This document shows, in pieces, positions 1 through 18,077 of a DNA stretch of 64,000 nucleotides (its first letter is position 1; each line of letters opens with the position of its first letter). Both the position numbers and the translations under genes were made by a program. The stretch lies in IMG/VR virus record IMGVR_UViG_3300044846_005100, positions 32,001 to 96,000 of that record; one strand, 5' to 3'. The notes under the pieces are model-generated. The model saw only the letters and a list, made by a program, of their open reading frames with translations. It made no database searches and was not told the origin of the DNA. The stretch is from a virus.

Positions 1-130
1 AGTGATGGAGTACCCGTCTCGCTCCAATCTTAACTGCTTTCCCGATTTTTACGGTGCACCGGCAGAGGGTCATGACTATCCTTAGCCTACTTAGCTTGTC
101 GACAGCATAGGTAGAGGCGTCCACTATCTT
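1..130 (-). ncRNA. Unnamed structured RNA candidate, probably truncated by the window edge
   Basis: GC-rich non-coding sequence with several hairpins, starting right after the tRNA-Tyr 3' end. Confidence 0.4.
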
Positions 131-134
131 TTGT

Positions 135-214
135 TGGAAGGGACGGATTCGAACCGCCGTACTCTGAGAGAACAGATTTACAGTCTGCCGGTTTTAGCCA
201 CTCACCCACCTTCC
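135..214 (-). tRNA. tRNA-Tyr(GTA)
   Basis: Cloverleaf GGAAGG..CCTTCC, anticodon loop CTGTAAA, long variable arm, GGTTCGAATCC T-arm. Confidence 0.95.
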
Positions 215-220
215 AATAAA

Positions 221-357
221 TAAGCTGAAGAAAGTTAGAAAGGCATATTTATGTTGCATAAAACGGGGATCGAACCCGTGACCTTTTAAACCCAATTTAA
301 ACGCTCAACCAACTGAGCTATTCACGCGAAGTAACCTTTTCTATTACTATCAGCTTA
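221..357 (-). ncRNA. Y-RNA-like scaffold Y1 with a nested complete tRNA-like module (TGG loop)
   Basis: Terminal stem TAAGCTGA/TCAGCTTA; TAGTAA-N9-TTACTTC motif; internal cloverleaf GCGTGAA..TTTATGC. Confidence 0.8.
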
Positions 358-362
358 ATAAG

Positions 363-506
363 TTAAGACGAGAAAACGAATAGAGTTTTGCTGTTATAAG
401 GCAATTTATGAGATTGCTGTCTTTACCACTTGACTAATTCTCCATGCGGGGAATATAGGATTCGAACCTATGTTTACGAAGTACCTCTAATCTTGCTACG
501 TCTTAA
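363..506 (-). ncRNA. Y-RNA-like scaffold Y2 with a circularly permuted tRNA (T-arm, closed acceptor, D-arm, CAT anticodon arm)
   Basis: Stem TTAAGACG/CGTCTTAA; TAGCAA..TACTTC; ATAGGTTCGAATCCTAT precedes the D-arm TAGTCAAGTGGTAAAGAC. Confidence 0.8.
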
Positions 507-552
507 TAATTCAATGAACTTATTTGTTTTTTAAACCCAGTCGATTAGGTTT

Positions 553-760
553 AAAAAAGAGGCCGGCTTACATTCCATCTTCCGGCCTCTTAGGCTTGAT
601 CTTCATGCTAGCATCTGATCAAAGGTAGAGCTTCGCTTCCAAACTCTTCGCTCTCTAAAAAGGCAGCCGTCTCTTATGGGATCGCCAGCAGGATACCTTA
701 AGTCTTATAGTGAACTTAACAAAACTACTATTAGCTCATAGCTGAGGGAATATCTTCCAA
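553..760 (-). ncRNA. Unnamed structured RNA candidate ending in a terminator-like hairpin
   Basis: GC-rich non-coding sequence; AAGAGGCCGG/CCGGCCTCTT stem followed by a T run on the minus strand. Confidence 0.4.
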
Positions 761-764
761 ATGA

Positions 765-903
765 TAAAGGTAAAGAAAGTTTCCAACCGAGATTTTAGCG
801 CTCTATCCAGCTGAGCTAATGAGGATTACTCCCCATGTTGGATTCGAACCAACGACCTCTCGTTTAACAGACGAAGTAACGGTTTAGATTACTATTACCT
901 TTA
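765..903 (-). ncRNA. Y-RNA-like scaffold Y3 with a circularly permuted tRNA-Asn(GTT)-like module
   Basis: Stem TAAAGGTAA/TTACCTTTA; order is anticodon arm (CTGTTAA), T-arm, acceptor closed by GTAA, D-arm. Confidence 0.8.
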
Positions 904-909
904 ATAAGT

Positions 910-1074
910 TAAGATGAAGAATGTTGCAAATAGTGTTGTTTCTTAACGCGCGTCTACCAGTTCCGCCATTCCCCAATGAGTTGTTTGTAATATAGTCGGG
1001 GAAGAAGGATTCGAACCTTCAATGTACGTGCTCCAAATGCATACGAAGTAACTATTCAGCTTGCTATCATCTTA
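910..1074 (-). ncRNA. Y-RNA-like scaffold Y4 with a permuted tRNA module (T-arm, closed acceptor, Leu-type D-arm)
   Basis: Stem TAAGATGA/TCATCTTA; TAGCAA-N9-TTACTTC; GAAGGTTCGAATCCTTC precedes TGGCGGAACTGGTAGACGC. Confidence 0.8.
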
Positions 1075-1082
1075 TAATAAGT

Positions 1083-1213
1083 TTATCAGGAGAAAGTTGC
1101 AAAGGTGTAACGCTTTCGCGCTTCTGCGGGAATTGAACCCGCGGCCTATTTTGTTTAAGAAAATTGCTCAACCGCTGAGCTAAGAAGTAACCTTTTGCAT
1201 TACTACCCGATAA
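1083..1213 (-). ncRNA. Y-RNA-like scaffold Y5 with D, anticodon (TAA) and T arms fused through the acceptor position
   Basis: Stem TTATCGGG/CCTGATAA; CTTCT/AGAAG replaces the acceptor stem. Confidence 0.8.
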
Positions 1214-1242
1214 TTAATTTTTTCAAAGAACTTGTTTACTTT

Positions 1243-1253
1243 ATTATAATACT
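1243..1253 (-). promoter_or_regulatory. AGTATTATAAT promoter-like motif (also at 6574-6584 and 7087-7097)
   Basis: Identical intergenic 11-mer, three times, about 24-34 nt upstream of an RNA or ORF start. Confidence 0.55.
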
Positions 1254-1294
1254 AAGAATCCCTTTACGTTTAAAATTATTCTTAATATTTTTTG

Positions 1295-1368
1295 TAGTCA
1301 AGACAGGAGTCGAACCTGCAATCTCCCCAACATTCTGTCGGGGCGCGTTACCAATTAGCCACCTGACT
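1295..1368 (-). ncRNA. Atypical tRNA-like RNA (AGTCAGG acceptor family) with an extended anticodon arm
   Basis: AGTCAGG/CTTGACT acceptor, GCAGGTTCGACTCCTGT T-arm, 7-bp anticodon stem with 5-nt loop. Confidence 0.7.
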
Positions 1369-1373
1369 ATAAA

Positions 1374-1464
1374 AAGGATTGCTGGGGGAATACTGTCGAG
1401 AGTATGTTTGGTTTGCGTTTCAGATACAAGAAGTAACTCTGTAACTTGCCACCCAGCAATCTTT
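1374..1464 (-). ncRNA. Y-RNA-like scaffold Y6, minimal, with no tRNA module
   Basis: Stem GATTGCTGGG/CCCAGCAATC; TGGCAA-N9-TTACTTC; begins about 10 nt after the Ro60 stop codon. Confidence 0.75.
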
Positions 1465-1473
1465 ATTTTTTAT

Positions 1474-3102
1474 TTAGATCTTGATCTTTCGAACTTTCTC
1501 TAAGTGATAGTTTGGATTGAATTCGCTTTTCGCGATATCATCGAACATTGAGTATCCGTATCCATAGTAGAAACGAACTTTATCTCCTGCAAGTTGAGTC
1601 GTTCCATAAGCTGCTAGATCCACCGAGTAAACGTATGGGCTTCCGCATGCTTTTGTGTATGACTCGTATGCTTTGTAGCTGCTTCCGCGGTTACACTCAT
1701 TGTCAGATAAGATAAACACTCGGTCATACTGACGTCCAGACATTTGAGCTACTGCCCATGCGGCTGAAAGATTGGTTCCTCCCATATCTCTCTTCATTGC
1801 GCTAGCAATAGAGAATACATCAGAGTTAGCGTTCCATTTTACGTATTCAGCACTTGAACCGAATCGAATAACGTCTCCATTTGTTGCCTTTGCAATGGTT
1901 GCTGCAATTAATGCTGCCTTGTCCATGCATCGGCTAGTGTAACGTTTTCCGCTTCTTGCGCCATCAGTCATTGGAGTACCCATTGATCCAGAGAAATCCA
2001 CCATTACTAGAGTCTTACCAGGAAGCATCTCTGAAAGGTTTGGCACTGCTGCTTCATATCCTTTAAGTAATGCTTGTGCAATCGCTCTGGAGTTAGAATC
2101 AGAAAATTCTGAGATCGTTACCTCGTGAGCTAGGTCAATTTGGTATGGCATAATCTTTCCTTTTCGGATTGCGTCTGGACTAGATAGCAGAGCAGTCAAC
2201 TTAGTAACCGTGTCTCCTTTGTTAACTGTCTTCAATACATTTCTAATATTTCGAAGAGCAGCTAGGATTCCCAGTTTACCGTCAGTTAATAGAGCATCCC
2301 AGTTTTCAGCTTTCGCTTCTTTTAAGATTGTCTCGGCTTCGGACTTGTCGATTTTACCCTCTTTCACAGCTTTCGCAACCTCTTGACCTGCGTCAGATTG
2401 TGCTACTTCCCAAGTATCAGCTGAAACGCTTAAGCCTTTCATGATAGCGGAAAGAACTGGCACTTTTTCTCCATTTACTTCGGCTACTGCACTAGAAGCC
2501 TTTGGATTTGGGTGAACCAGGTTGATCACGTCAACTAGAGAGCTCTTGTATTTAAGTAGTGCATAAGCATCTAAGTTTTCAAGAGCATCCGCGAATCCTT
2601 TTTTCATCGCATTGGTTACCTTTGTTCCATTCAGTGCTGAGAAGCAAGCAACGATTTCTGCCATATCATCTGGACGGAATAGAGTTCCTCCGGATTGAGT
2701 ACGTTTGTTCCATAGGGAATAGAAACGTTTTGCCCATTCTTGACCCGCACAGTGTGGAGCTAGGTAGCTTGCTGCAAGGTGGTTAATTGATCTCATTCCT
2801 TCACCAACACATCTCGAATAAACGATTGATTGAGCTACGAAGTATGCATCTTCTTCTGCACACTCATCGACTAGTCCTTTCAACTCCCTCATCGTTTCTG
2901 TCTCAGAACGATAGAATTGATTTTCTAGCTTTAGTGTGTTTAACATCGTCAGGAGACGAAGCCACTTATCTTGTGAATAAGCTGCATGTCCTTGACGATT
3001 CTTAGTGTCTGGTTTTGGGATTTTCACCGCTTCTACCAGGTTCGCTTGAGGCTGCATTCCAGCTAGCGTCGAACGAAGCTTGTCGTTTCTAAACTTTGTC
3101 AT
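1474..3102 (-). CDS. rsr: Ro60/Rsr-like TROVE-domain RNA-binding protein with C-terminal vWA domain
   Basis: 542 aa; TROVE-like motifs (DTWE, ALRNIRN, MPY), vWA MIDAS DFSGSM, GGTN, LSDNE. Confidence 0.9.
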   Translation of the reverse strand: MTKFRNDKLRSTLAGMQPQANLVEAVKIPKPDTKNRQGHAAYSQDKWLRLLTMLNTLKLENQFYRSETETMRELKGLVDECAEEDAYFVAQSIVYSRCVGEGMRSINHLAASYLAPHCAGQEWAKRFYSLWNKRTQSGGTLFRPDDMAEIVACFSALNGTKVTNAMKKGFADALENLDAYALLKYKSSLVDVINLVHPNPKASSAVAEVNGEKVPVLSAIMKGLSVSADTWEVAQSDAGQEVAKAVKEGKIDKSEAETILKEAKAENWDALLTDGKLGILAALRNIRNVLKTVNKGDTVTKLTALLSSPDAIRKGKIMPYQIDLAHEVTISEFSDSNSRAIAQALLKGYEAAVPNLSEMLPGKTLVMVDFSGSMGTPMTDGARSGKRYTSRCMDKAALIAATIAKATNGDVIRFGSSAEYVKWNANSDVFSIASAMKRDMGGTNLSAAWAVAQMSGRQYDRVFILSDNECNRGSSYKAYESYTKACGSPYVYSVDLAAYGTTQLAGDKVRFYYGYGYSMFDDIAKSEFNPNYHLEKVRKIKI

Positions 3103-3196
3103 TAGTACAAGGAATTAATTTTTGTTTGTGATTAATACTATACAATAATTAAATTGATAGTTTCACGTTTTGCTTAAACTTTTTTCGAAAAAGGTT

Positions 3197-3272
3197 TGGT
3201 GCACCCTACAGGGATCGAACCTGTGACATCTTGCATGTAAAACAAGCGCTCTACCAGCTGAGCTAAAGGTGC
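3197..3272 (-). tRNA. tRNA-Val(TAC), CCA encoded
   Basis: Cloverleaf, anticodon loop TTTACAT. Confidence 0.95.
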
Positions 3273-3339
3273 ATAATAAACTCATTTTTGTTACAATAAA
3301 CAGTATTAGTTTATTGATACAAATTTATGTTTATTGAAT

Positions 3340-3460
3340 TGGTGGGGAAGGGCTTCTTAGGGCCAAATCATTAAATTTACTGTTTAATTGCGATGAAACT
3401 CTTTAATTACTATCATTGCTGAAGAACGGCAAAAGAGCGAATTGTTTTGCATTCTTCCCC
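3340..3460 (-). ncRNA. Inside-out Y-like RNA Y7: acceptor stem plus ACCA enclosing a permuted scaffold motif
   Basis: GGGGAAG/CTTCCCC-ACCA ends; internal CTCTTTTGCCGTTCTTCA-GCAA-TGATAGTAATTAAAGAG. Confidence 0.6.
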
Positions 3461-3465
3461 ATGTG

Positions 3466-3540
3466 TGATCCCGGTGGGGCTCGAACCCACGACTCCCTCA
3501 TTAAAAGTGAGGTGCTCTAAACCAACTGAGCTACGAGATC
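3466..3540 (-). tRNA. tRNA-Lys(TTT)
   Basis: Cloverleaf, loop CTTTTAA. Confidence 0.95.
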
Positions 3541-3593
3541 TCTCGTTTGCGACTCTTGTCGCTCTTGTCACTTTCCATAATCTTTGGATTTTT

Positions 3594-3812
3594 TTAAAGG
3601 TTTGTGATGTATCTGTTTAATAATTTTGCATCCATTAATGGATAAAAATCAGTATCTCCCATGTCTGTAACTGGAACTTGAAATTCAATATCTACTGTTT
3701 TACTTTCATGTTCAATTGGGGCTGAATAATAGGCTACTCCTAATCTGATGAACTTTAATTTTGCAATAGGCTTTTGTTTATAAAGCTCTTTTTTAATTAC
3801 GGTTTTTTCCAT
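3594..3812 (-). CDS. Hypothetical protein within the tRNA array
   Basis: 72-aa ORF with an A-rich leader. Confidence 0.75.
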   Translation of the reverse strand: MEKTVIKKELYKQKPIAKLKFIRLGVAYYSAPIEHESKTVDIEFQVPVTDMGDTDFYPLMDAKLLNRYITNL

Positions 3813-3829
3813 GAGTTTAATTTTTTATT

Positions 3830-3903
3830 TATGGATCACTCTATTTTAATTTGTGGCTCATCAGTCGAATAAAGTGATCCATATTGAATCGACTGATGAG
3901 CCA
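3830..3903 (-). other. H-type RNA pseudoknot
   Basis: 15-bp perfect stem 3854-3868/3889-3903; its loop 3873-3883 is complementary to 3830-3840 (11 bp). Confidence 0.7.
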
Positions 3904-3908
3904 TATTG

Positions 3909-3981
3909 TCTAAGCAGCAGGGATCGAACCTGCGGTCTCGTGGTCCCAAACCACGCGGATTACCAACTTTCCCATGCCTAG
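3909..3981 (-). tRNA. tRNA-Pro(TGG)
   Basis: Cloverleaf, loop TTTGGGA. Confidence 0.92.
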
Positions 3982-4043
3982 TTGTCCACTGTGTAGCATG
4001 CCGAAACAAGACTTTTTATATAGCGCACAGTGGATCGCTTTTG

Positions 4044-4127
4044 AGGAAGCCTGAGGTGTCGATCCCCATACCTTTCAGTACCAACTGTTTTCAAGACAGT
4101 GTTGCAGGCCGCTGCAATTAAACTTCC
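4044..4127 (-). tRNA. tRNA-Ser(TGA), atypical D and T loops
   Basis: Loop CTTGAAA, long variable arm, D-arm TTGCA-GCGGCC-TGCAA, T-loop ATCGACA. Confidence 0.8.
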
Positions 4128-4133
4128 TTATTG

Positions 4134-4204
4134 TTCTCCCCCAAGGATTCGAACCTCGGTCACTTGGCCCAAAACCAAGGGTCCTGCCGCTAGACGAGGG
4201 GAGA
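4134..4204 (-). tRNA. tRNA-Gln(TTG)
   Basis: Cloverleaf, loop TTTTGGG. Confidence 0.92.
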
Positions 4205-4212
4205 ATTTAAAG

Positions 4213-4229
4213 CCAATATGTCAAAGAAC
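4213..4229 (-). promoter_or_regulatory. rrn-type boxA antitermination element (identical copy at 6351-6367; variants at 1222-1231 and 510-519)
   Basis: GTTCTTTGACATATTGG on the minus strand, upstream of tRNAs. Confidence 0.6.
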
Positions 4230-4260
4230 ATTTTTTAGATTGAAGTTCAACAATCTTTTG

Positions 4261-4333
4261 AGCTTTCGACCGGGTTCGAACCGATGGCCACTTGATTACA
4301 AATCAAGAGCTCTACCAACTGAGCTACGAAAGC
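4261..4333 (-). tRNA. tRNA-Thr(TGT)
   Basis: Cloverleaf, loop TTTGTAA. Confidence 0.95.
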
Positions 4334-4341
4334 AATAAAAC

Positions 4342-4373
4342 AAAAAAAACCCGAATCGTTTGGACTCGGGTTT
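4342..4373 (-). terminator. Intrinsic terminator (attenuator 1)
   Basis: AAACCCGAGTC/GATTCGGGTTT stem followed by a T run. Confidence 0.8.
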
Positions 4374-4397
4374 CTTTTAGTTTGATATAGTTAAGAT

Positions 4398-4553
4398 TTA
4401 CATCAATTCCCGAGTATTTTTTAAGTGTTGTTTAGGATCAATAATCGTATTTGAGAAGCGCACAACATTAAAATCACAGTTCGTGTTCCAGCTCATCGGC
4501 GAGCTACTTAACGACTGATACGAAGATTTTAATATGTTGTTAATGTTTTTCAT
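4398..4553 (-). CDS. Putative leader peptide 1 (51 aa)
   Basis: MKNINNILKSSYQSLSSSPMSWNTNCDFNVVRFSNTIIDPKQHLKNTRELM; its 3' end carries ACTCGGG, complementary to the terminator 5' arm. Confidence 0.6.
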   Translation of the reverse strand: MKNINNILKSSYQSLSSSPMSWNTNCDFNVVRFSNTIIDPKQHLKNTRELM

Positions 4554-4668
4554 CGTGTTTATTTATCTTATCAATTTCTAATTTTTAACGCATTGGATCT
4601 TGAGGTTGCTAATATACACCTTTTATTTTAAAATAAAAAATATTTTTAGCTTTTTTTAAATTATTTTT

Positions 4669-4745
4669 TGGTGGTCCTTGCTGGAATCGAACCAGCCACC
4701 TACTGATTATGAGTCAGTTGCTCTAACCGAATGAGCTAAAGGACC
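4669..4745 (-). tRNA. tRNA with CAT anticodon (Ile2 or elongator Met), CCA encoded
   Basis: Cloverleaf GGTCCTT..AAGGACC, loop CTCATAA. Confidence 0.92.
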
Positions 4746-4908
4746 GTGTGCACGTTTTTATATTATCCCCAGAACGTACAAACTGTGCCGACACACGATT
4801 CGGAAGGCGTAGTGCGCATTGATTAAAGAATACCGAAGTATTCTAACTAACGTTCAAGAGGCTATCCCTATCTTCGATCCATACCCAGCGCTAGGCAGAG
4901 GGCTAGTT
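4746..4908 (-). ncRNA. Unnamed structured RNA candidate
   Basis: AGAATAC-TTCG-GTATTCT hairpin and further stems, between tRNA genes. Confidence 0.45.
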
Positions 4909-4909
4909 G

Positions 4910-5008
4910 TAGTCAGGAGGGGAATCGAACCCCTGTTGCCCTTAGTTGCTCTTACTTCTCAGTAAAGTGTGGGATCGAACCACACCTGGACCAAAGCTCC
5001 ACCTGACT
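4910..5008 (-). ncRNA. tRNA-like RNA (AGTCAGG family) with two T-arm-like hairpins
   Basis: AGTCAGG/CCTGACT; GTGTGG-TTCGATC-CCACAC and AGGGG-TTCGATT-CCCCT. Confidence 0.65.
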
Positions 5009-5011
5009 GTA

Positions 5012-5101
5012 AACACACTCTTCAGCTTTCTACTCCCAGCTCCGAGGAATTGTATATAACTTAGCCCATCTCACCGCTGTGTGGGAACTGAAGTTTATGT
5101 G
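5012..5101 (-). ncRNA. Unnamed structured RNA candidate
   Basis: Nested stems CTTCAG/CTGAAG and TCCCA/TGGGA. Confidence 0.5.
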
Positions 5102-5104
5102 ATG

Positions 5105-5219
5105 TAGTCAGGACAGGAATCGAACCTGTAAACCTACTTCCCATCTTCGGTTTTTTAACTCTAATGTTTAGAGTGGGTCAAACCACATTAGAGTACGTAT
5201 ACCATTCCGCCACCTGACT
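5105..5219 (-). ncRNA. tRNA-like RNA (AGTCAGG family) with a greatly expanded anticodon and variable domain
   Basis: Acceptor, D-arm TGGCGGAATGGTATACG, 10-bp ACTCTAATGT/ACATTAGAGT stem, T-arm. Confidence 0.7.
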
Positions 5220-5296
5220 ATGGACGGGCTTTTTGTCGATCTCTCTTAGGCTAGCCCGATACCGCCCTAAGTTCATTCAAGCGCTACTTGACATCG

Positions 5297-5378
5297 TACG
5301 CAAAGAGGGACTCGAACCCTCACACCTTTCGGCACTGGTTCCTAAGACCAGCGTGACTACCAATTCCACCATTCGCGC
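5297..5378 (-). tRNA. tRNA-Leu(TAG)
   Basis: Loop CTTAGGA, long variable arm. Confidence 0.95.
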
Positions 5379-5381
5379 AAA

Positions 5382-5483
5382 TTGAGGTTGAGAAGTCCTC
5401 TGTGTTGTAGTGTACGATTATGTTTTCCATAATTCAAGTAATGTCACTCATCTTTATATTTCCTTTCTCAAGGGAACAACACA
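5382..5483 (-). ncRNA. Kissing-loop RNA element, copy 1
   Basis: GTGTTGT/ACAACAC stem; TGAGAA complementary to the TTCTCA loop; second copy at 5778-5905. Confidence 0.65.
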
Positions 5484-5486
5484 AAA

Positions 5487-5620
5487 ATCATAAACAGAGG
5501 CTATTGGTGGTACCCGCGTCTAGCCATTACCAATCTAACTAGATTTGAGATGATCAAGATCACCTATACTATTTTATTCACGTAGGAATTACCCTTCTAC
5601 CTTTTCCGCGTGTTTATGAT
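5487..5620 (-). ncRNA. Unnamed structured RNA candidate
   Basis: Closing stem ATCATAAAC/GTTTATGAT. Confidence 0.45.
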
Positions 5621-5622
5621 AG

Positions 5623-5774
5623 TGGTTCTAGTAGGAATCGAACCCACCTTGTAAATTACATGCAATATGCCTTAACTTTTTACTCCGATCCTAGTATTAA
5701 GGAGTGTTAAACCAAATTGCCATCATCTACCCACTCGCGACTGCTGGGAGCTACCCACGTTATGCTATAGAACC
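5623..5774 (-). ncRNA. RNA with tRNA-like ends and an insert of about 110 nt
   Basis: GGTTCTA/TAGAACC acceptor, TAGC after the 5' strand, T-arm GTGGGTTCGATTCCTAC. Confidence 0.65.
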
Positions 5775-5777
5775 AAG

Positions 5778-5905
5778 TTGAGGATGAGAAGTCCTCTGTG
5801 TTGTGTGGTGTACCGCCGCCAGCCTTAATACATTATTTGTTGTTTAACCACCCTTAATAATATATCACTGGTACGACCGCACTCTTGTTTCTCAAGAAAC
5901 AACAC
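5778..5905 (-). ncRNA. Kissing-loop RNA element, copy 2
   Basis: Same conserved ends as 5382-5483 with a different insert. Confidence 0.65.
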
Positions 5906-5909
5906 GTAG

Positions 5910-5982
5910 TGGAGCAGGTGGGATTCGAACCCACATCCTCTACCTTGCAAAGGTAGCGCTCAGCCAGTTGAGCTACAACCCC
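5910..5982 (-). tRNA. tRNA-Ala(TGC)
   Basis: Cloverleaf, G3:U70 pair, loop TTTGCAA. Confidence 0.95.
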
Positions 5983-5989
5983 ATTTAAA

Positions 5990-6183
5990 AAACAAGTCTT
6001 CCGTGCTCACCACGGGTTTGGATTTGACTGATGGTTTGTTCCCCATCACCTGTTGACGTGCACATCAGAGCAGGGTCCATTACAGGATACCTTGGGGCAT
6101 TCAAACTCTCAGTAAAGGTTGCGATCCTATGAGAGCCAAGGTTTCTTTCATCCGCGCTATTCGGACTTCTGTAAGACTTGTTT
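5990..6183 (-). ncRNA. Large (about 194 nt) multi-stem ncRNA candidate
   Basis: 11-bp closing stem AAACAAGTCTT/AAGACTTGTTT; internal CCTTGG/CCAAGG, CTCTCA/TGAGAG and TGATGG/CCATCA. Confidence 0.6.
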
Positions 6184-6185
6184 AG

Positions 6186-6259
6186 AGCAGGTAGTCGGAC
6201 TCGAACCGACAACCCTCGCCTTGGAAGGGCGACGCTCTAGCCAATTGAGCTATACCTGC
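6186..6259 (-). tRNA. tRNA-Gly(TCC)
   Basis: Cloverleaf, loop CTTCCAA. Confidence 0.95.
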
Positions 6260-6266
6260 TTATTTG

Positions 6267-6340
6267 TGATCCCGGCACGATTCGAACGTGCGACCTTCGC
6301 CTTAGAAGGGCGTTGCTCTATCCGGCTGAGCTACGGAACC
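6267..6340 (-). tRNA. tRNA-Arg(TCT)
   Basis: Cloverleaf, loop CTTCTAA. Confidence 0.95.
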
Positions 6341-6389
6341 GTTTTTAGATCCAATATGTCAAAGAACTTTGGTACAAAATGTACCGCAG

Positions 6390-6462
6390 TAGCGGGGGCC
6401 AGATTCGAACTGACGTCCTCGGGTTATGAGCCCGCCGAGAATACCATCTTCTCCACCCCGCT
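6390..6462 (-). tRNA. tRNA-Met(CAT), initiator-like
   Basis: GGG/CCC anticodon stem, loop CTCATAA. Confidence 0.9.
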
Positions 6463-6468
6463 ATATTG

Positions 6469-6540
6469 TACTGCCACGGAGAATCGAACTCCGATTTTAT
6501 GGATGAAAACCATAGGTCCTAACCGTTAGACGATGGCAGC
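6469..6540 (-). tRNA. tRNA-Glu(TTC)
   Basis: Cloverleaf, loop TTTTCAT. Confidence 0.93.
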
Positions 6541-6606
6541 ATATTTAAAAAGAACGTTTTCTTTTTTGTTGTCATTATAATACTCTATTTCAAACTATAT
6601 TAAAAC

Positions 6607-6637
6607 AAAAAAACCTCAACTTTTTGGGTTGAGGTTT
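6607..6637 (-). terminator. Intrinsic terminator (attenuator 2)
   Basis: AAACCTCAAC/GTTGAGGTTT stem followed by a T run. Confidence 0.8.
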
Positions 6638-6658
6638 AAATATTCTTATATTCTTGAC

Positions 6659-6742
6659 TCAACTTATTAACCGCACTCTTCCCTCGCCTGCTTCTATCAG
6701 AAGGGCCGCTCTAAGGATTGAGATATTTGTTAATTGTTTCAT
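6659..6742 (-). CDS. Putative leader peptide 2 (27 aa)
   Basis: MKQLTNISILRAALLIEAGEGRVRLIS; GTTGAG across the stop codon pairs with the terminator 5' arm; TATTTTTG -7 box at about 6783-6790. Confidence 0.55.
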   Translation of the reverse strand: MKQLTNISILRAALLIEAGEGRVRLIS

Positions 6743-6820
6743 TGAAAGTATCAATAGTTATTTTGTTGTATTATTTATACTGCAAAAATATAAAAAGTTT
6801 CAATTGTTGAAAAATTTATT

Positions 6821-7063
6821 TTACAATTCATCAAGATTTGCTAGTGTGTCAACACAAACTATTACTTGATCTTTTGGAAAATACCACTTGTCGAGGAAGG
6901 TTCCTCCCTTTTCGTATTCGCCCCAATCGTAATCTTCTTTAAGTGTTTGAAGTACGTGTTCAACGCTTTTTGCCTTCATTTTAAGAAGGTTAGAGTCAGC
7001 TGCTTCTCTGTGAGTTGTTAGTCCAACATTCTCGGTACCGATGATGTAAGTGCGTAATGCCAT
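6821..7063 (-). CDS. Hypothetical protein
   Basis: Co-oriented ORF behind an AGTATTATAAT motif. Confidence 0.75.
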   Translation of the reverse strand: MALRTYIIGTENVGLTTHREAADSNLLKMKAKSVEHVLQTLKEDYDWGEYEKGGTFLDKWYFPKDQVIVCVDTLANLDEL

Positions 7064-7113
7064 TTGGTTAAATTTAAAAGGTTTTAATTATAATACTCTT
7101 TTTAAAGTAAGTT

Positions 7114-7518
7114 TTAAATCAAATTCTTCTTTTTTAGCTCAGCATGTTTTACCATCACACTCTTTCGTATTTTAGAAAAGAGTTTAGGGAATTGGGTGAC
7201 TGTCCACACTAACACTTGTACATGCCACGTAGTTATTAAATTAAAGACTTTAGAAAAGAAGGAGTGTTTCATTTCAGGTTCTATCTTCCAGTCTGGCACA
7301 TTTTCCAAGTAGATCTTAAGTTGTCGATGTAAGACTACTTGATGTTCAAACATGTCATCTGACTGGGTATACTGTCGATATATCCTGACTTTACGTAAGT
7401 ATTCAATTGCATGGTCAACTGCCATCATAGCCTCCTCTTTAGATGGATACATTACTTGCATCTCCTCAATCTTTTTAGGAAAATCTGCTCTACTTCGTAA
7501 GATTATCATCGCTCGCAT
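7114..7518 (-). CDS. Hypothetical protein
   Basis: Operon-packed ORF. Confidence 0.7.
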   Translation of the reverse strand: MRAMIILRSRADFPKKIEEMQVMYPSKEEAMMAVDHAIEYLRKVRIYRQYTQSDDMFEHQVVLHRQLKIYLENVPDWKIEPEMKHSFFSKVFNLITTWHVQVLVWTVTQFPKLFSKIRKSVMVKHAELKKKNLI

Positions 7519-7918
7519 ACTCAGTTTCGATTAATCTTTGAATTCTCATTCTGCCTTTTTCACCAATTGGAATAGGATTTCCCTCTTCATCAATATGTAC
7601 AAATTTGATTTGAGTTTTTAGAACGACTATTTGCTTTCCAGTATAAACGTTATGCGCTCTAGCTTCCATGTATAGAACAATACTAGTATTGCCTAATCCT
7701 GCAGGACCACCATATATCTTTATTAATTGACCCTCTTTTGCAGGTTTCTCAAAGAAACATTTTTCAATAGATACTGTTACCATTCGAGGAGTATCACACA
7801 GTTGCATTGAGTATCCGGCAGCAGCGGCATCGATCCATGCCAGGAGTTTACCCCCAAATAGGTTTCCGTGAAATCCTAGATCAGATTTCTTAATTGGATG
7901 AGTGTTTAATAATTCCAT
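7490..7918 (-). CDS. Hotdog-fold acyl-CoA thioesterase (YciA-like)
   Basis: DLGFHGNLFGGKLLAWID motif; C-terminal FVHIDEEGNP. Confidence 0.85.
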   Translation of the reverse strand: MELLNTHPIKKSDLGFHGNLFGGKLLAWIDAAAAGYSMQLCDTPRMVTVSIEKCFFEKPAKEGQLIKIYGGPAGLGNTSIVLYMEARAHNVYTGKQIVVLKTQIKFVHIDEEGNPIPIGEKGRMRIQRLIETEYASDDNLTK

Positions 7919-8184
7919 TATTCTTTTTCCTTAGTATTGAATTTTACTAATATCTCGTTTCGAAGTTCCAATGCTTTACGTCTTTCAGTAAAGCTTGAAC
8001 CTTTTTCCATGTCTCCAAGTGCAGCTAAGAATACATTTAATTCTTCATCATTTGCTGTTTCTGCAATAAAATCATATTCGTCATCTGTAATATTAAACAG
8101 GACTTTAATTACATTATCAAACATGTCATGGATTCCTCCTCCACTTACAATACATGCCTGTACTTCTGGTCTAAGTATTTTCAT
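7918..8184 (-). CDS. Hypothetical protein
   Basis: Operon-packed ORF. Confidence 0.75.
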   Translation of the reverse strand: MKILRPEVQACIVSGGGIHDMFDNVIKVLFNITDDEYDFIAETANDEELNVFLAALGDMEKGSSFTERRKALELRNEILVKFNTKEKE

Positions 8185-8362
8185 TAATTTTTATTTTTAT
8201 TTCTCGATTCGGTTGATCTGCGTTTTCTCCTAAATCTCTTTTTAATACGCTAACAATCCAGGTTACGGCCCATTCATGTTCACACTCACACATCTTAACA
8301 AATGGATACTCTTCTCCAGTATCTGGATCAATATCTACAAATCCTATGATAAATTTATTCAT
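8171..8362 (-). CDS. Hypothetical protein
   Basis: Operon-packed ORF. Confidence 0.7.
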   Translation of the reverse strand: MNKFIIGFVDIDPDTGEEYPFVKMCECEHEWAVTWIVSVLKRDLGENADQPNREIKIKINENT

Positions 8363-8363
8363 G

Positions 8364-8636
8364 TTAATTTAGATTTTCATCGTGTACCCTTACAAATTGA
8401 CCTTCCTCTAAGTCTTCCTCACACTCAGTCACTACGATCTGGCCTTCTCTACTGAATACTATTACTTTCTGTACTGATTCATCTAGGTGAAACTTTGCAT
8501 CCCCTACAATATCAACCACTAGACCTTCACCCTCTCTTAGGATTAGACTTAGTGTTCTTGCAAAAATTAGGGAAGAGTTTAACCAGTCTTCTGGTTTGTC
8601 CTGATGTTCAGGATCATTTGCATTAGTGTAGTTCAT
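8364..8636 (-). CDS. Hypothetical protein
   Basis: Operon-packed ORF. Confidence 0.75.
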   Translation of the reverse strand: MNYTNANDPEHQDKPEDWLNSSLIFARTLSLILREGEGLVVDIVGDAKFHLDESVQKVIVFSREGQIVVTECEEDLEEGQFVRVHDENLN

Positions 8637-8637
8637 A

Positions 8638-8961
8638 TTAATATGTGTTTATTTTATTTAGGATACGTCCCTTTAATTCAGTGTCCTGTAGATTTTCAGA
8701 ATTGATAATTTCTTCAAGTAGATCTTTCATCTCCTCTTTGGATTTTTCTTTTGCTCTTAGTCTATTTCTAAGTTCAACTTGATAGAGATGATATGCAACT
8801 TCATCAACTTCTCGAAGCTTATTAAAGTATTTTTCAACTCTCTGATCAAGACGTCTGCTTTTTTCCATACTAGTCACATTGGGCAAGGCTTTATGTAATT
8901 CATCAAGTCTTCCTTTAAGATATTGAATCTCTCCAAATTTTTGAATTTCTTGTGAAGTCAT
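8638..8961 (-). CDS. Hypothetical coiled-coil protein
   Basis: Operon-packed ORF. Confidence 0.75.
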   Translation of the reverse strand: MTSQEIQKFGEIQYLKGRLDELHKALPNVTSMEKSRRLDQRVEKYFNKLREVDEVAYHLYQVELRNRLRAKEKSKEEMKDLLEEIINSENLQDTELKGRILNKINTY

Positions 8962-8967
8962 CTTAAA

Positions 8968-9504
8968 TTAATTTTTTACATGGATCTTAAATTCCTTGCA
9001 ATCAGAATCGCTATCTCGAGTCACAGTAATATTAAGGCCAGTTGAACTAGTCCAATTGACAGTTTCTCCCTCGTCCAAGTTAAATCTATCCCCTACGATA
9101 GGAGAAGGTATAACTACTTCAATTGGGTTATCGTAAAACACTACATATGGATAACCTACTTGAGGGTTATTTACGGTAACTAGTACAGGATCATGCTTTG
9201 GATGGTCGATCTCCGCGCTCACGTCCTTAAGAATACCCTGTTGATACATCATCAGCCAGGCAAGATTTGAAGTCTCCTTAAATGGATTAAATATCTCAAA
9301 TGGGCTTAGTCCATATGTTCCGCTCATTGAATTTGATTCGCCGCCTTTAAGTGTTACTTGTCTTTCTTCGTATGGACTTATAGTCAACATATTTAAAGTA
9401 ATTGGAGGTGCAGCTAATCCTCCATCAGGCATAGGAGAAGTTTTTTCCCTAATTATAGTCATTCGACTATCTTTGTAAAACCAATTTCTAAGTGTTTTTT
9501 TCAT
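8968..9504 (-). CDS. Hypothetical protein
   Basis: 178-aa ORF. Confidence 0.75.
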   Translation of the reverse strand: MKKTLRNWFYKDSRMTIIREKTSPMPDGGLAAPPITLNMLTISPYEERQVTLKGGESNSMSGTYGLSPFEIFNPFKETSNLAWLMMYQQGILKDVSAEIDHPKHDPVLVTVNNPQVGYPYVVFYDNPIEVVIPSPIVGDRFNLDEGETVNWTSSTGLNITVTRDSDSDCKEFKIHVKN

Positions 9505-16724: not shown

Positions 16725-18077
16725 TTAAATAATTTTTTCTGTTAATAAAATTTGTTTTACTTTTTCAATAAGTTCTTCAATAGTACCATTATTAATAATT
16801 TCATAATCAAGTTTGTGATTATCAAGACTTGTTTCACTAGGGTGTTCACTTTGAAATGATTTAGAACAACTCATCTTATGTTGATAAATTTCGTTACATT
16901 CAAAACAAGGTCTTTTAACTCCTATAGTAATTCCTCCTCTAGCTTTTACAGCATCATATTCATTGGGGAATCTCATGTCTGTAATGCACCACGAAGGATA
17001 AACTAGATTTTTATTTTCTTCCTGTTCATACAAACCCTCTCTTTCTAAAAATGCTTCCTCATAAGCTTCTGATGCTTCTTCTAATGTATTAAAATAACCT
17101 AAAAATTTAATTTTACCTTTAATTTGAATATTAGCTCTAATTCTATTATTATTTTTCTTATCTAAGCTTACTCCTTTATATCCAGTAGTGTTATCTTTTC
17201 TAATACTTGTATTAATAGCTTGTGTACCATAAGTAACCCATCTACAATTATTTGGGTTATAACCTTCATTATTATCTTTTCTATCTAATGTTAAATTATC
17301 TTTATATCCATTAGAATTTGACCAGTTTATAAAAGATTCAAAAGACTCTTCCCATTCTTTACATAGTTTAATACCTCTTTCACCATAACTAGAATATCTG
17401 GGATGTTTAGGATTATTACATCTTTGTTTAATATTATGGTAAACTCTAAAAATTCTAGTTTTATTATAACCGTGCTTTAATCTACTATCAATAAAAGTAT
17501 TACTTTTCTCTATTTCATTATTTATTGGTTTATACTCACTCATTAAAGCATTTACCCAAATTGAAGGATGTATAATATCTCTACCACATTCTGTACCTAA
17601 TAATTGAAGAAGTAGTCTAGGGGTTAAAACTTCAGATTTTACTTCCCACCACTCAGGAGAGTGTTCTCTTAAGTTTAAACATAGTTCTTCTTTTTTGTTA
17701 AAAGCCTCTTGTTCTGTATTAAAATATTTATTATTATTATCCCAATTAAATGAATCATAAACTGAACTAAAATTTTTAACTTTACCTCTTGTAAGATAAT
17801 ATCTTTTCCATTCTTCCCCTAATTCACTATTCTTAAAATCTTGGTCTTCAAGTTGCTCTCTAGTACAACCTAAAAGTAAACATACAATATCTTTAAGTTT
17901 ATCTGCGAATTTTTTGATTTTCCAACCAGAATCTTCTCTTTGTTCAATTGTACCTGCATCAATTTTAATAGAATTAAAAATTTCTTCACTGTTATGACCT
18001 AAACATAATTCTTTAATAATTTTCCCAACAGTATCCTTTCCAGACGATATACGTCCATTTATACTAATTATACTCAT
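16725..18077 (-). CDS. dNMP kinase with an in-frame HNH-AP2 endonuclease insertion
   Basis: GRISSGKDT, LQLLGTECGR, DMRFPNE; internal KQRC..YGERGI..DRKDN..NCRW and an AP2-like segment. Confidence 0.85.
   Translation of the reverse strand: MSIISINGRISSGKDTVGKIIKELCLGHNSEEIFNSIKIDAGTIEQREDSGWKIKKFADKLKDIVCLLLGCTREQLEDQDFKNSELGEEWKRYYLTRGKVKNFSSVYDSFNWDNNNKYFNTEQEAFNKKEELCLNLREHSPEWWEVKSEVLTPRLLLQLLGTECGRDIIHPSIWVNALMSEYKPINNEIEKSNTFIDSRLKHGYNKTRIFRVYHNIKQRCNNPKHPRYSSYGERGIKLCKEWEESFESFINWSNSNGYKDNLTLDRKDNNEGYNPNNCRWVTYGTQAINTSIRKDNTTGYKGVSLDKKNNNRIRANIQIKGKIKFLGYFNTLEEASEAYEEAFLEREGLYEQEENKNLVYPSWCITDMRFPNEYDAVKARGGITIGVKRPCFECNEIYQHKMSCSKSFQSEHPSETSLDNHKLDYEIINNGTIEELIEKVKQILLTEKII

Follow-up and report, generated by a model that had tools for sequence, protein, structure and literature searches.

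Short reading frames that carry a run of regulatory codons are hallmarks of the enterobacterial attenuators, as seen for ilvGMEDA (Ile, Leu, Val), thr (Thr, Ile), trpL, hisL, pheL and leuL. In these systems, a strand at the end of the reading frame competes with an intrinsic terminator, the position of the ribosome acts as the switch, and more than one amino acid can be sensed by a single leader. In the pheM attenuator of E. coli pheST, a leader peptide responds to tRNA charging and, by way of a terminator, governs a gene of the translation apparatus. In T-box riboswitches, the status of a tRNA likewise decides between terminator and antiterminator, but here the uncharged tRNA is bound directly and no open reading frame takes part. 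Phage-encoded tRNAs have been linked to codon demand and to escape from host defences that cleave tRNAs. A full-text literature search that covered few papers from subscription journals returned no account of leader-peptide attenuation of tRNA genes. Here, we describe a locus at the head of a phage tRNA island that combines a short leader reading frame with an intrinsic terminator and in which the leader codons correspond to the tRNA genes that follow. We consider it to be a codon-matched, ribosome-mediated leader-peptide attenuator of multivalent character and assign a probability of about 0.65 to this reading.

Genome context and the tRNA island

The window, that is the whole stretch of 64,000 nucleotides analyzed here, corresponds to positions 32001-96000 in a virus record of 140,223 bp that is rated complete. 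The genome has a G+C content of 32%, and a Shine-Dalgarno-like tetramer was found before only nine of 188 long open reading frames, such that 179 of the 188 genes do without; upstream of the start codons, the sequences are A-rich at positions -14 to -11 and at -3. The phage DNA polymerase finds its nearest counterparts in crAss-like phages (27-30% identity), while a tRNA-Glu is 91% identical to the tRNA-Glu of Cellulophaga phages. Judging from the sequence, the host is likely a member of the Bacteroidota. Two further genome features deserve mention. A 26-nt sequence, GTTATATTTACTTATAACTTAAAAAC, occurs in nineteen near-identical copies outside the window (G000:C1:1200-16200), where it resides 10-20 nt upstream of the ATG of small minus-strand genes. 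It resembles an early promoter class specific to the phage, such as is found in crAss-like phages with a virion RNA polymerase. A 450-aa open reading frame (16725-18077, minus strand) consists of a deoxynucleoside monophosphate kinase part (residues 1-186) and an HNH endonuclease part (residues 188-345), suggestive of a homing endonuclease inserted in, or fused to, a kinase gene.

The tRNA island is located on the minus strand and comprises 26 called tRNA genes, from position 6540 down beyond the start of the window. The leader locus in focus, termed module 2, sits at its head and is followed by tRNA-Glu (6540-6468) and a tRNA with CAT anticodon (6462-6389). The anticodon stem of the latter contains three G-C pairs, which are a mark of initiator tRNAs, and it is thus initiator-like. 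Other elements are interspersed with the tRNA genes. The freshwater-1 RNA motif (RF02979) is present at full length in the gap between tRNA-Gly and tRNA-Ala (6023-6084, minus strand; 86 bits, E 1.5e-19, above threshold), and this orphan motif is probably co-transcribed with the phage tRNAs as it lies on the same strand inside the tRNA block. A Ro60-like protein with TROVE and vWA domains (Pfam E 3e-7 and 2e-5) is encoded at 1474-3102 on the minus strand and downstream of its gene a weak match to YrlA, a Y-RNA-like RNA, is apparent (797-860, minus strand; 33 bits with a cut-off of 69).

Anatomy and conservation of the module 2 leader

Read in the 5' to 3' direction of the minus strand, module 2 and the tRNA genes behind it are organized as follows:

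6783-6790, minus: promoter-like box TATTTTTG, a sequence match to the Bacteroidota -7 consensus TAnnTTTG (putative)
6771-6779, minus: TATAAATAA box, start of the conserved cassette, invariant in the alignment of seven sequences
6659-6742, minus: leader reading frame of 27 codons plus TGA (ATG at 6742, TGA at 6661-6659)
6677-6715, minus: putative control codons 10-22 (LRAALLIEAGEGR), all cognate to tRNAs encoded between the module 2 terminator and module 1
6665-6676, minus: codons 23-26, a 12-nt spacer including CGG, variable in a comparison of relatives
6658-6663, minus: GTTGAG, candidate 5' strand of the antiterminator across the TGA stop, exact complement of CTCAAC in the 5' arm of the terminator
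6638-6653, minus: small A-U hairpin in the antiterminator loop, predicted for the window, with other sequences in relatives
6604-6637, minus: intrinsic terminator with 10-bp stem, 7-nt loop and T run, found by scan and identical in all seven sequences
6574-6585, minus: GAGTATTATAAT box, possible second promoter, conserved in all relatives
4669-6540, minus: putatively gated block with tRNA-Glu(TTC), CAT tRNA (initiator-like), tRNA-Arg(TCT), tRNA-Gly(TCC), freshwater-1 RNA, tRNA-Ala(TGC), tRNA-Leu(TAG) and a CAT tRNA (ARAGORN and Rfam)

A first-pass annotation of the same DNA had already pointed out a -7 promoter box, a 27-aa reading frame with a terminator 21 nt behind its stop, the pairing of GTTGAG across the stop with CTCAAC in the terminator arm, a separate motif at 6574 and tRNA-Glu and tRNA-Met as the genes that follow. 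All of these elements were found again, with the box at 6790-6783 being a putative promoter, the reading frame spanning 6742-6659, the terminator stem beginning 21 nt past the TGA, GTTGAG at 6663-6658 being the exact complement of its partner and the separate motif corresponding to GAGTATTATAAT at 6585-6574.

The cassette is conserved in six further contigs, and four upstream contexts can be distinguished. Contigs L002, L003 and L004 were found via the neighbouring 80-aa gene and L008 via the sequence of the terminator. L012 and L013 were retrieved from metagenomes in a single scan, for which codons 13-22 were turned into a degenerate pattern and which yielded these two true relatives in addition to chance matches. 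Searches of viral contigs with exact patterns led to one and the same set of four contigs, or in one case to two of these, and to no further relatives, and a scan of genome contigs found no relatives of the cassette. A relationship to a DprA remnant was considered and rejected. Matches to a 10-residue motif reside in high-G+C bacterial DprA-like genes (L009-L011, L014), which are unrelated in base composition and context, and we regard these matches as fortuitous because a short pattern was run against a huge collection.

Homology among the relatives starts about 50 nt before the ATG at the invariant TATAAATAA box, upstream of which four different sequences are present, and extends downstream through the GAGTATTATAA box, after which it breaks in L002, L004 and L012 at an extra CAT tRNA. 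The promoter-like TATTTTTG box is kept in L013 (as TAGTTTTG), carries one mismatch in L008 and is missing in L012. All seven sequences share without change the start codon ATG, the frame of 27 codons with its TGA, the motif AGTTGAGT and the terminator, while codons 23-26 (VRLI in the window, ALFR in L008, ILLK in L012 and LLLR in L013) and the spacer behind the stop vary freely. The proposal that a leader is wired to a terminator is supported in that a short leader with an intrinsic terminator heads the tRNA block and that GTTGAG and the terminator are invariant with variable flanks. The leader lacks a Shine-Dalgarno sequence, like most genes of the genome, and this is no argument against its translation because genes generally lack one here.

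We also considered the leader as a structured RNA and rejected this option: when the terminator is left out, folding is no better than that of shuffled sequences (z -0.33), and the single internal hairpin loses a G-C pair in relatives, uncompensated. The small A-U hairpin at 6638-6653 is weak evidence, since A-T-rich palindromes easily arise, and a pause hairpin is not evident in the leader. In an Rfam scan of positions 1-9000 with E-values up to 1, neither a family covering the leader nor a T-box match was detected, the only overlap with the leader region being a terminator-driven match to L10_leader (24.7 bits with a cut-off of 44, E 0.98).

Leader codons match the downstream tRNAs

Codons 10-22 of the leader read CTT AGA GCG GCC CTT CTG ATA GAA GCA GGC GAG GGA AGA. 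Between the terminator of module 2 and that of module 1, seven tRNAs are encoded in the order Glu(TTC), CAT, Arg(TCT), Gly(TCC), Ala(TGC), Leu(TAG) and CAT, and each of the 13 codons falls in a box read by one of them. The match is two-way, as all non-initiator tRNA species of the block are used in the run and all codons of the run are read, assuming that tRNAs with U34 read whole family boxes (GCC, GGC, CTT) and that one CAT tRNA, the candidate being the gene at 4745-4669, is of the Ile2 type and reads ATA. No longer cognate run exists in any of the six frames of the genome (140 kb), and the runner-up comprises 10 codons. A run of at least 13 in 26 codons has a simulated P of 1.5e-6 with the phage's own codon usage, whereby the match was spotted after reading the open reading frame and is post hoc, but the set of tRNAs was fixed by the two terminators and not picked to fit. 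The correspondence between leader codons and downstream tRNAs is a real regularity, which had been overlooked in the first-pass annotation.

The order of the tRNAs in the block is the same in L002, L003 and L004. Substitutions in codons 10-22 of the relatives are synonymous with the exception of Ala12Thr in L002 and L004, Thr being non-cognate. Synonymous changes in L012 and L013 constitute biased evidence at codons 13-22, as these two contigs were found with a pattern that demands the amino acids encoded there; the unbiased relatives add one synonymous change (L008) and the exchange of Ala for Thr at codon 12 (L002, L004).

Terminator, predicted antiterminator and a possible mechanism

The arms of the terminator (6637-6628 and 6620-6611) form ten pairs, four of which are G-C, and enclose a 7-nt loop; a run of seven T follows. 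Our terminator scan of positions 1-9000 gave 13 sites compared with 6.5 +/- 2.4 in shuffled sequences. The terminator is predicted to fold with -11.5 kcal/mol, as opposed to about -4.3 kcal/mol for the antiterminator of just 6 bp. In folds of the nascent RNA up to the terminator loop, GUUGAG pairs with CUCAAC in each of the seven sequences (probability about 0.99) and sequesters the loop-proximal half of the terminator 5' arm, where the hairpin must nucleate. The minimum-energy fold of the full-length RNA contains the terminator (-33.0 versus -29.7 with the antiterminator forced). In a shuffle control, the arm was sequestered equally well by 10 of 100 shuffled upstream sequences. Covariation in the antiterminator pairing is absent among the relatives, both strands being invariant.

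According to published footprint sizes, the stretch shielded by a ribosome extends downstream to about 12-13 nt past the first base in its A site. The 12 nt of codons 23-26 would therefore equal the expected downstream reach of a ribosome from its A site, and a stall anywhere up to codon 22 would leave GUUGAG free, while GUUGAG would be covered once the ribosome had moved on to codons 24-27 or the UGA. We infer that the leader is translated, that ribosomes take these positions and that termination is affected thereby.

On this basis, the following sequence of events can be proposed. The transcript would enter the 27-codon leader either from a cassette promoter near 6790-6771 or from the upstream gene. 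Translation of codons 10-22 would require Leu-UAG, Arg-UCU, Ala-UGC, Glu-UUC and Gly-UCC, all encoded downstream, and the ATA codon would be included if one of the CAT tRNAs is of the Ile2 type. Once any of these tRNAs became scarce, the ribosome would stall within the run, at least 13 nt before GUUGAG, which could then pair with CUCAAC, allowing RNA polymerase to read through into the tRNA genes. With fast decoding, the ribosome would arrive at codons 24-27 or at the UGA and cover GUUGAG, the terminator would form and transcription would stop at 6607-6604. The phage thus probably makes more of the tRNAs of the block when ribosomes read the leader codons slowly. As a net effect, tRNA supply would feed back on tRNA synthesis, and module 1 would act likewise for the remaining 17 species.

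Module 1, a second leader in the same island

That the design recurs within the island had been noted before and holds true, as the same layout is present further downstream:

4341-4553, minus: module 1, with a leader of 51 codons (4553-4398), the putative antiterminator strand ACTCGGG (4415-4409) and a terminator (4379-4341) that adjoins tRNA-Thr

Both leaders start with the motif MK-x-[IL]-x-NI, as the first-pass annotation stated. In the module 1 leader, all 17 tRNA species encoded downstream are represented (P 0.006) and 45 of 50 codons are cognate to one of them, with the caveat for these counts that the tRNA-like Ser(TGA) gene at about 4130-3985 was not called by ARAGORN. Only four codons belong to the set of module 2 (P 2e-4), and the joint simulated P for representation of the 17 species and avoidance of module 2 codons amounts to 2e-5. 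Codons for Ala and Gly, CTN codons for Leu and AGR codons for Arg do not occur in this leader at all. The five non-cognate codons are ATA7, ATG20 and those of the tail CGG-GAA-...-ATG. The pairing ACUCGGG:CCCGAGU comprises 7 bp and has a fold probability of about 1.0. In the relatives L018-L020, the middle part of the leader diverges by S/T/P exchanges, and both ends are identical. The terminator yields a weak match to the Rfam family Thr_leader (33 bits versus a cut-off of 55).

The tRNA-Ser(TGA)-like sequence (3985-4130, minus strand) is flanked by tRNA-Gln and tRNA-Pro and has an odd T arm; neither ARAGORN nor the Rfam tRNA model called it. Further along the island, outside the window, a G+C-rich stretch of 220 nt is inserted between tRNA-Ser(GCT) and tRNA-His (L024 2809-3030, corresponding to G000:C1:31308-31529, minus strand). 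It may represent a structured RNA; at its end, directly before tRNA-His, an 8-bp G-C hairpin is followed by a poor T tail. The unit of 17 species may be split at this hairpin. Two additional leader candidates were rejected. For a 51-aa open reading frame before tRNA-His (L024 2992-2837), no codon match to the following tRNAs was apparent by eye. ORF72 (3812-3594), considered as a third leader for Lys and Val, exhibits weak enrichment (14 of 71 codons, P 0.12) and is not followed by a terminator.

Analogous units in Cellulophaga phage phi4:1

Once the idea of a codon match had been formed, we examined phi4:1 (L021, NC_021788.1), an unrelated cultured phage. Its tRNA array contains three units, each composed of a promoter-like sequence, a short open reading frame and a terminator, with tRNAs directly after:

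4715-4836: unit A, reading frame 4715-4783, encoding QRLHLQELEQP before tRNAs Pro, Glu, Gln, His, Leu, Leu and Arg
5678-5812: unit B, reading frame 5678-5758, before tRNAs Ala, Lys, Ile, Gly, Met, Asp, Thr, Val, Arg and Met
7421-7569: unit C, reading frame 7421-7519, before tRNAs Tyr, Ser, Asn, Trp and Phe and a pseudo-tRNA with GCA anticodon

Units A and B contain cognate runs of 11 and 16 codons, respectively, each of which is the longest in 60 kb of phi4:1 sequence in six frames. In unit B, 22 of 25 codons are cognate (P 9e-5). Unit C matches at the amino-acid level (14 of 31, P 0.008), with 13 of 14 residues drawn from N, Y, S, W, F and C, and features an 8-bp equivalent of the antiterminator just past the cognate run. 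Each of the three leaders fits best to its own tRNA block. Units A and B share a putative promoter of the Bacteroidota type, TTTG...TATGTTTG. In the existing annotation of phi4:1, the middle unit appears as hypothetical protein gp075, starting from an upstream TTG, and the other two are unannotated. In a T5-like tRNA region (L023), tRNA genes alternate with longer protein-coding genes.

Alternative explanations

It is conceivable, albeit unlikely, that module 2 serves for plain insulation. The hairpin would then be the terminator of the upstream operon with the 80-aa gene (7063-6821), the tRNAs would be transcribed from GAGTATTATAAT, and the leader reading frame would be irrelevant or an untranslated by-product. 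This would be in line with the weakness of the antiterminator and with the conservation of the box in all relatives, among which the CAT tRNA of L002, L004 and L012 begins just 7 nt behind it. It also fits that the box recurs 24 nt ahead of the start codon of the 80-aa gene. Insulation, however, leaves unexplained the two-way match of 13 codons (P about 1e-6) and the occurrence of the same rule in module 1 and in the three phi4:1 units. In module 1 and in phi4:1, the tRNAs start right after the terminator, such that there is no gap comparable to that between the module 2 terminator and tRNA-Glu and no room for a promoter. It is also at odds with the retention of the reading frame by the cassette in four upstream contexts.

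Nor does the box constitute a general promoter class of the genome, an option that we rejected because only three good copies exist genome-wide, all of them on the minus strand and in or beside the tRNA island. They reside before tRNA-Glu (6574-6585), upstream of the 80-aa gene (7087-7098) and before the tRNA-Leu(TAA) at 1253 (1243-1253). The copies form a local repeat, (A)GAGTATTATAAT, which in two of three cases is followed by a second shared motif, (A)CGTTCTTT..AAA. The box does not fit the Bacteroidota -7 consensus, and synteny among the relatives breaks directly behind it. Promoter, processing signal and recombination site are all conceivable roles for it. If the AGTATTATAAT box is a promoter, it may bypass the terminator, and the attenuator would then only add to a basal level of tRNAs.

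It also appears improbable that the locus is a stand-alone small gene or small RNA that has a promoter and terminator of its own and some other role, with the codon match as a side effect. The conserved succession of promoter-like region, reading frame and terminator and the G+C-rich core with its GNN period would suit such a gene. On the other hand, a small RNA finds no counterpart among Rfam families and would lack significant structure besides the terminator, and a functional peptide is difficult to reconcile with the free variation of its four C-terminal residues. A role of the peptide would also not predict five leaders in two phages that each match their own tRNA block.

We further give little credence to the possibility that the leader senses tRNAs with an output other than termination, such as processing or stability of the precursor or recruitment of a rescue factor. 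A strong codon match next to a weak antiterminator would be compatible with such an output, and tRNA precursors need processing in any case. Yet, every leader examined is followed by a canonical hairpin with a T run, and at least four of the five have a strand, within the reading frame or at its end, that pairs with the terminator arm.

This leaves the CGG codon, on which the first-pass annotation had focused. As claimed, CGG precedes the stop by four codons in each of the two leaders in this genome, and it is the rarest Arg codon (0.44 per 1000 codons) and the only codon in either leader that is read by no phage tRNA. Among the relatives of module 2, the claim does not hold: codon 24 is CGG only in the window and three near-identical relatives, whereas L008, L012 and L013 have the Leu codons TTG, TTG and CTG, respectively. 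CGG looks derived in the clade of the window. In module 2 it begins 10 nt upstream of GTTGAG, so that a ribosome stalled with CGG in the A site would mask GTTGAG instead of freeing it, with the same outcome as reaching the stop. In module 1, CGG simply lies within the pairing partner of the terminator arm. The least credible of all readings is thus the one in which rare CGG acts as the sensing codon and reports on host tRNA-Arg(CCG), since Leu replaces it in three divergent relatives and its position is too near to the antiterminator strand. Of the two features on which the earlier proposal had been staked, the 6-bp pairing is kept in all seven sequences and the CGG codon is not conserved.

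Possible functions and comparison with known systems

If the interpretation as a codon-matched attenuator is correct, phages gauge decoding capacity for each codon family and tune tRNA synthesis accordingly, and the logic of attenuation would extend from amino-acid genes to the decoders themselves. More tentatively, the two leaders could establish a two-tier, demand-driven tRNA supply, with six species under leader 2 and 17 under leader 1, in which the leaders sense a host defence that targets tRNAs and trigger the synthesis of replacements. Each block would be switched on when ribosomes fail on its codons, e.g., upon breakdown of host tRNAs or attack by anticodon nucleases, and the part of the island behind leader 1 also includes the Ro60-like gene with its Y-RNA-like elements. 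The rule that relates leader codons to the downstream tRNA block is computable and therefore suited for surveys of phage genomes and for annotating small open reading frames that gene callers miss. Leaders of this kind might also be of use as compact sensors of tRNA supply in synthetic biology.

There is no sequence relationship between the leaders described here and the enterobacterial attenuators. Module 2 differs from the latter by lacking an evident pause or anti-antiterminator hairpin, by its short antiterminator of 6 bp and by residing in a phage whose genes are largely free of Shine-Dalgarno sequences. Six codon families are represented one to three times each in its regulatory run, and the genes presumably controlled are those for the tRNAs that read the regulatory codons instead of genes for biosynthetic enzymes. 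The pheM attenuator differs from the phage leaders in that it is part of a cellular genome, responds to a single amino acid and controls a synthetase. A close parallel is found in phi4:1, the leaders of which bear no sequence similarity to those in the window and are followed directly by tRNAs after their terminators, but obey the same rule and share the same anatomy.
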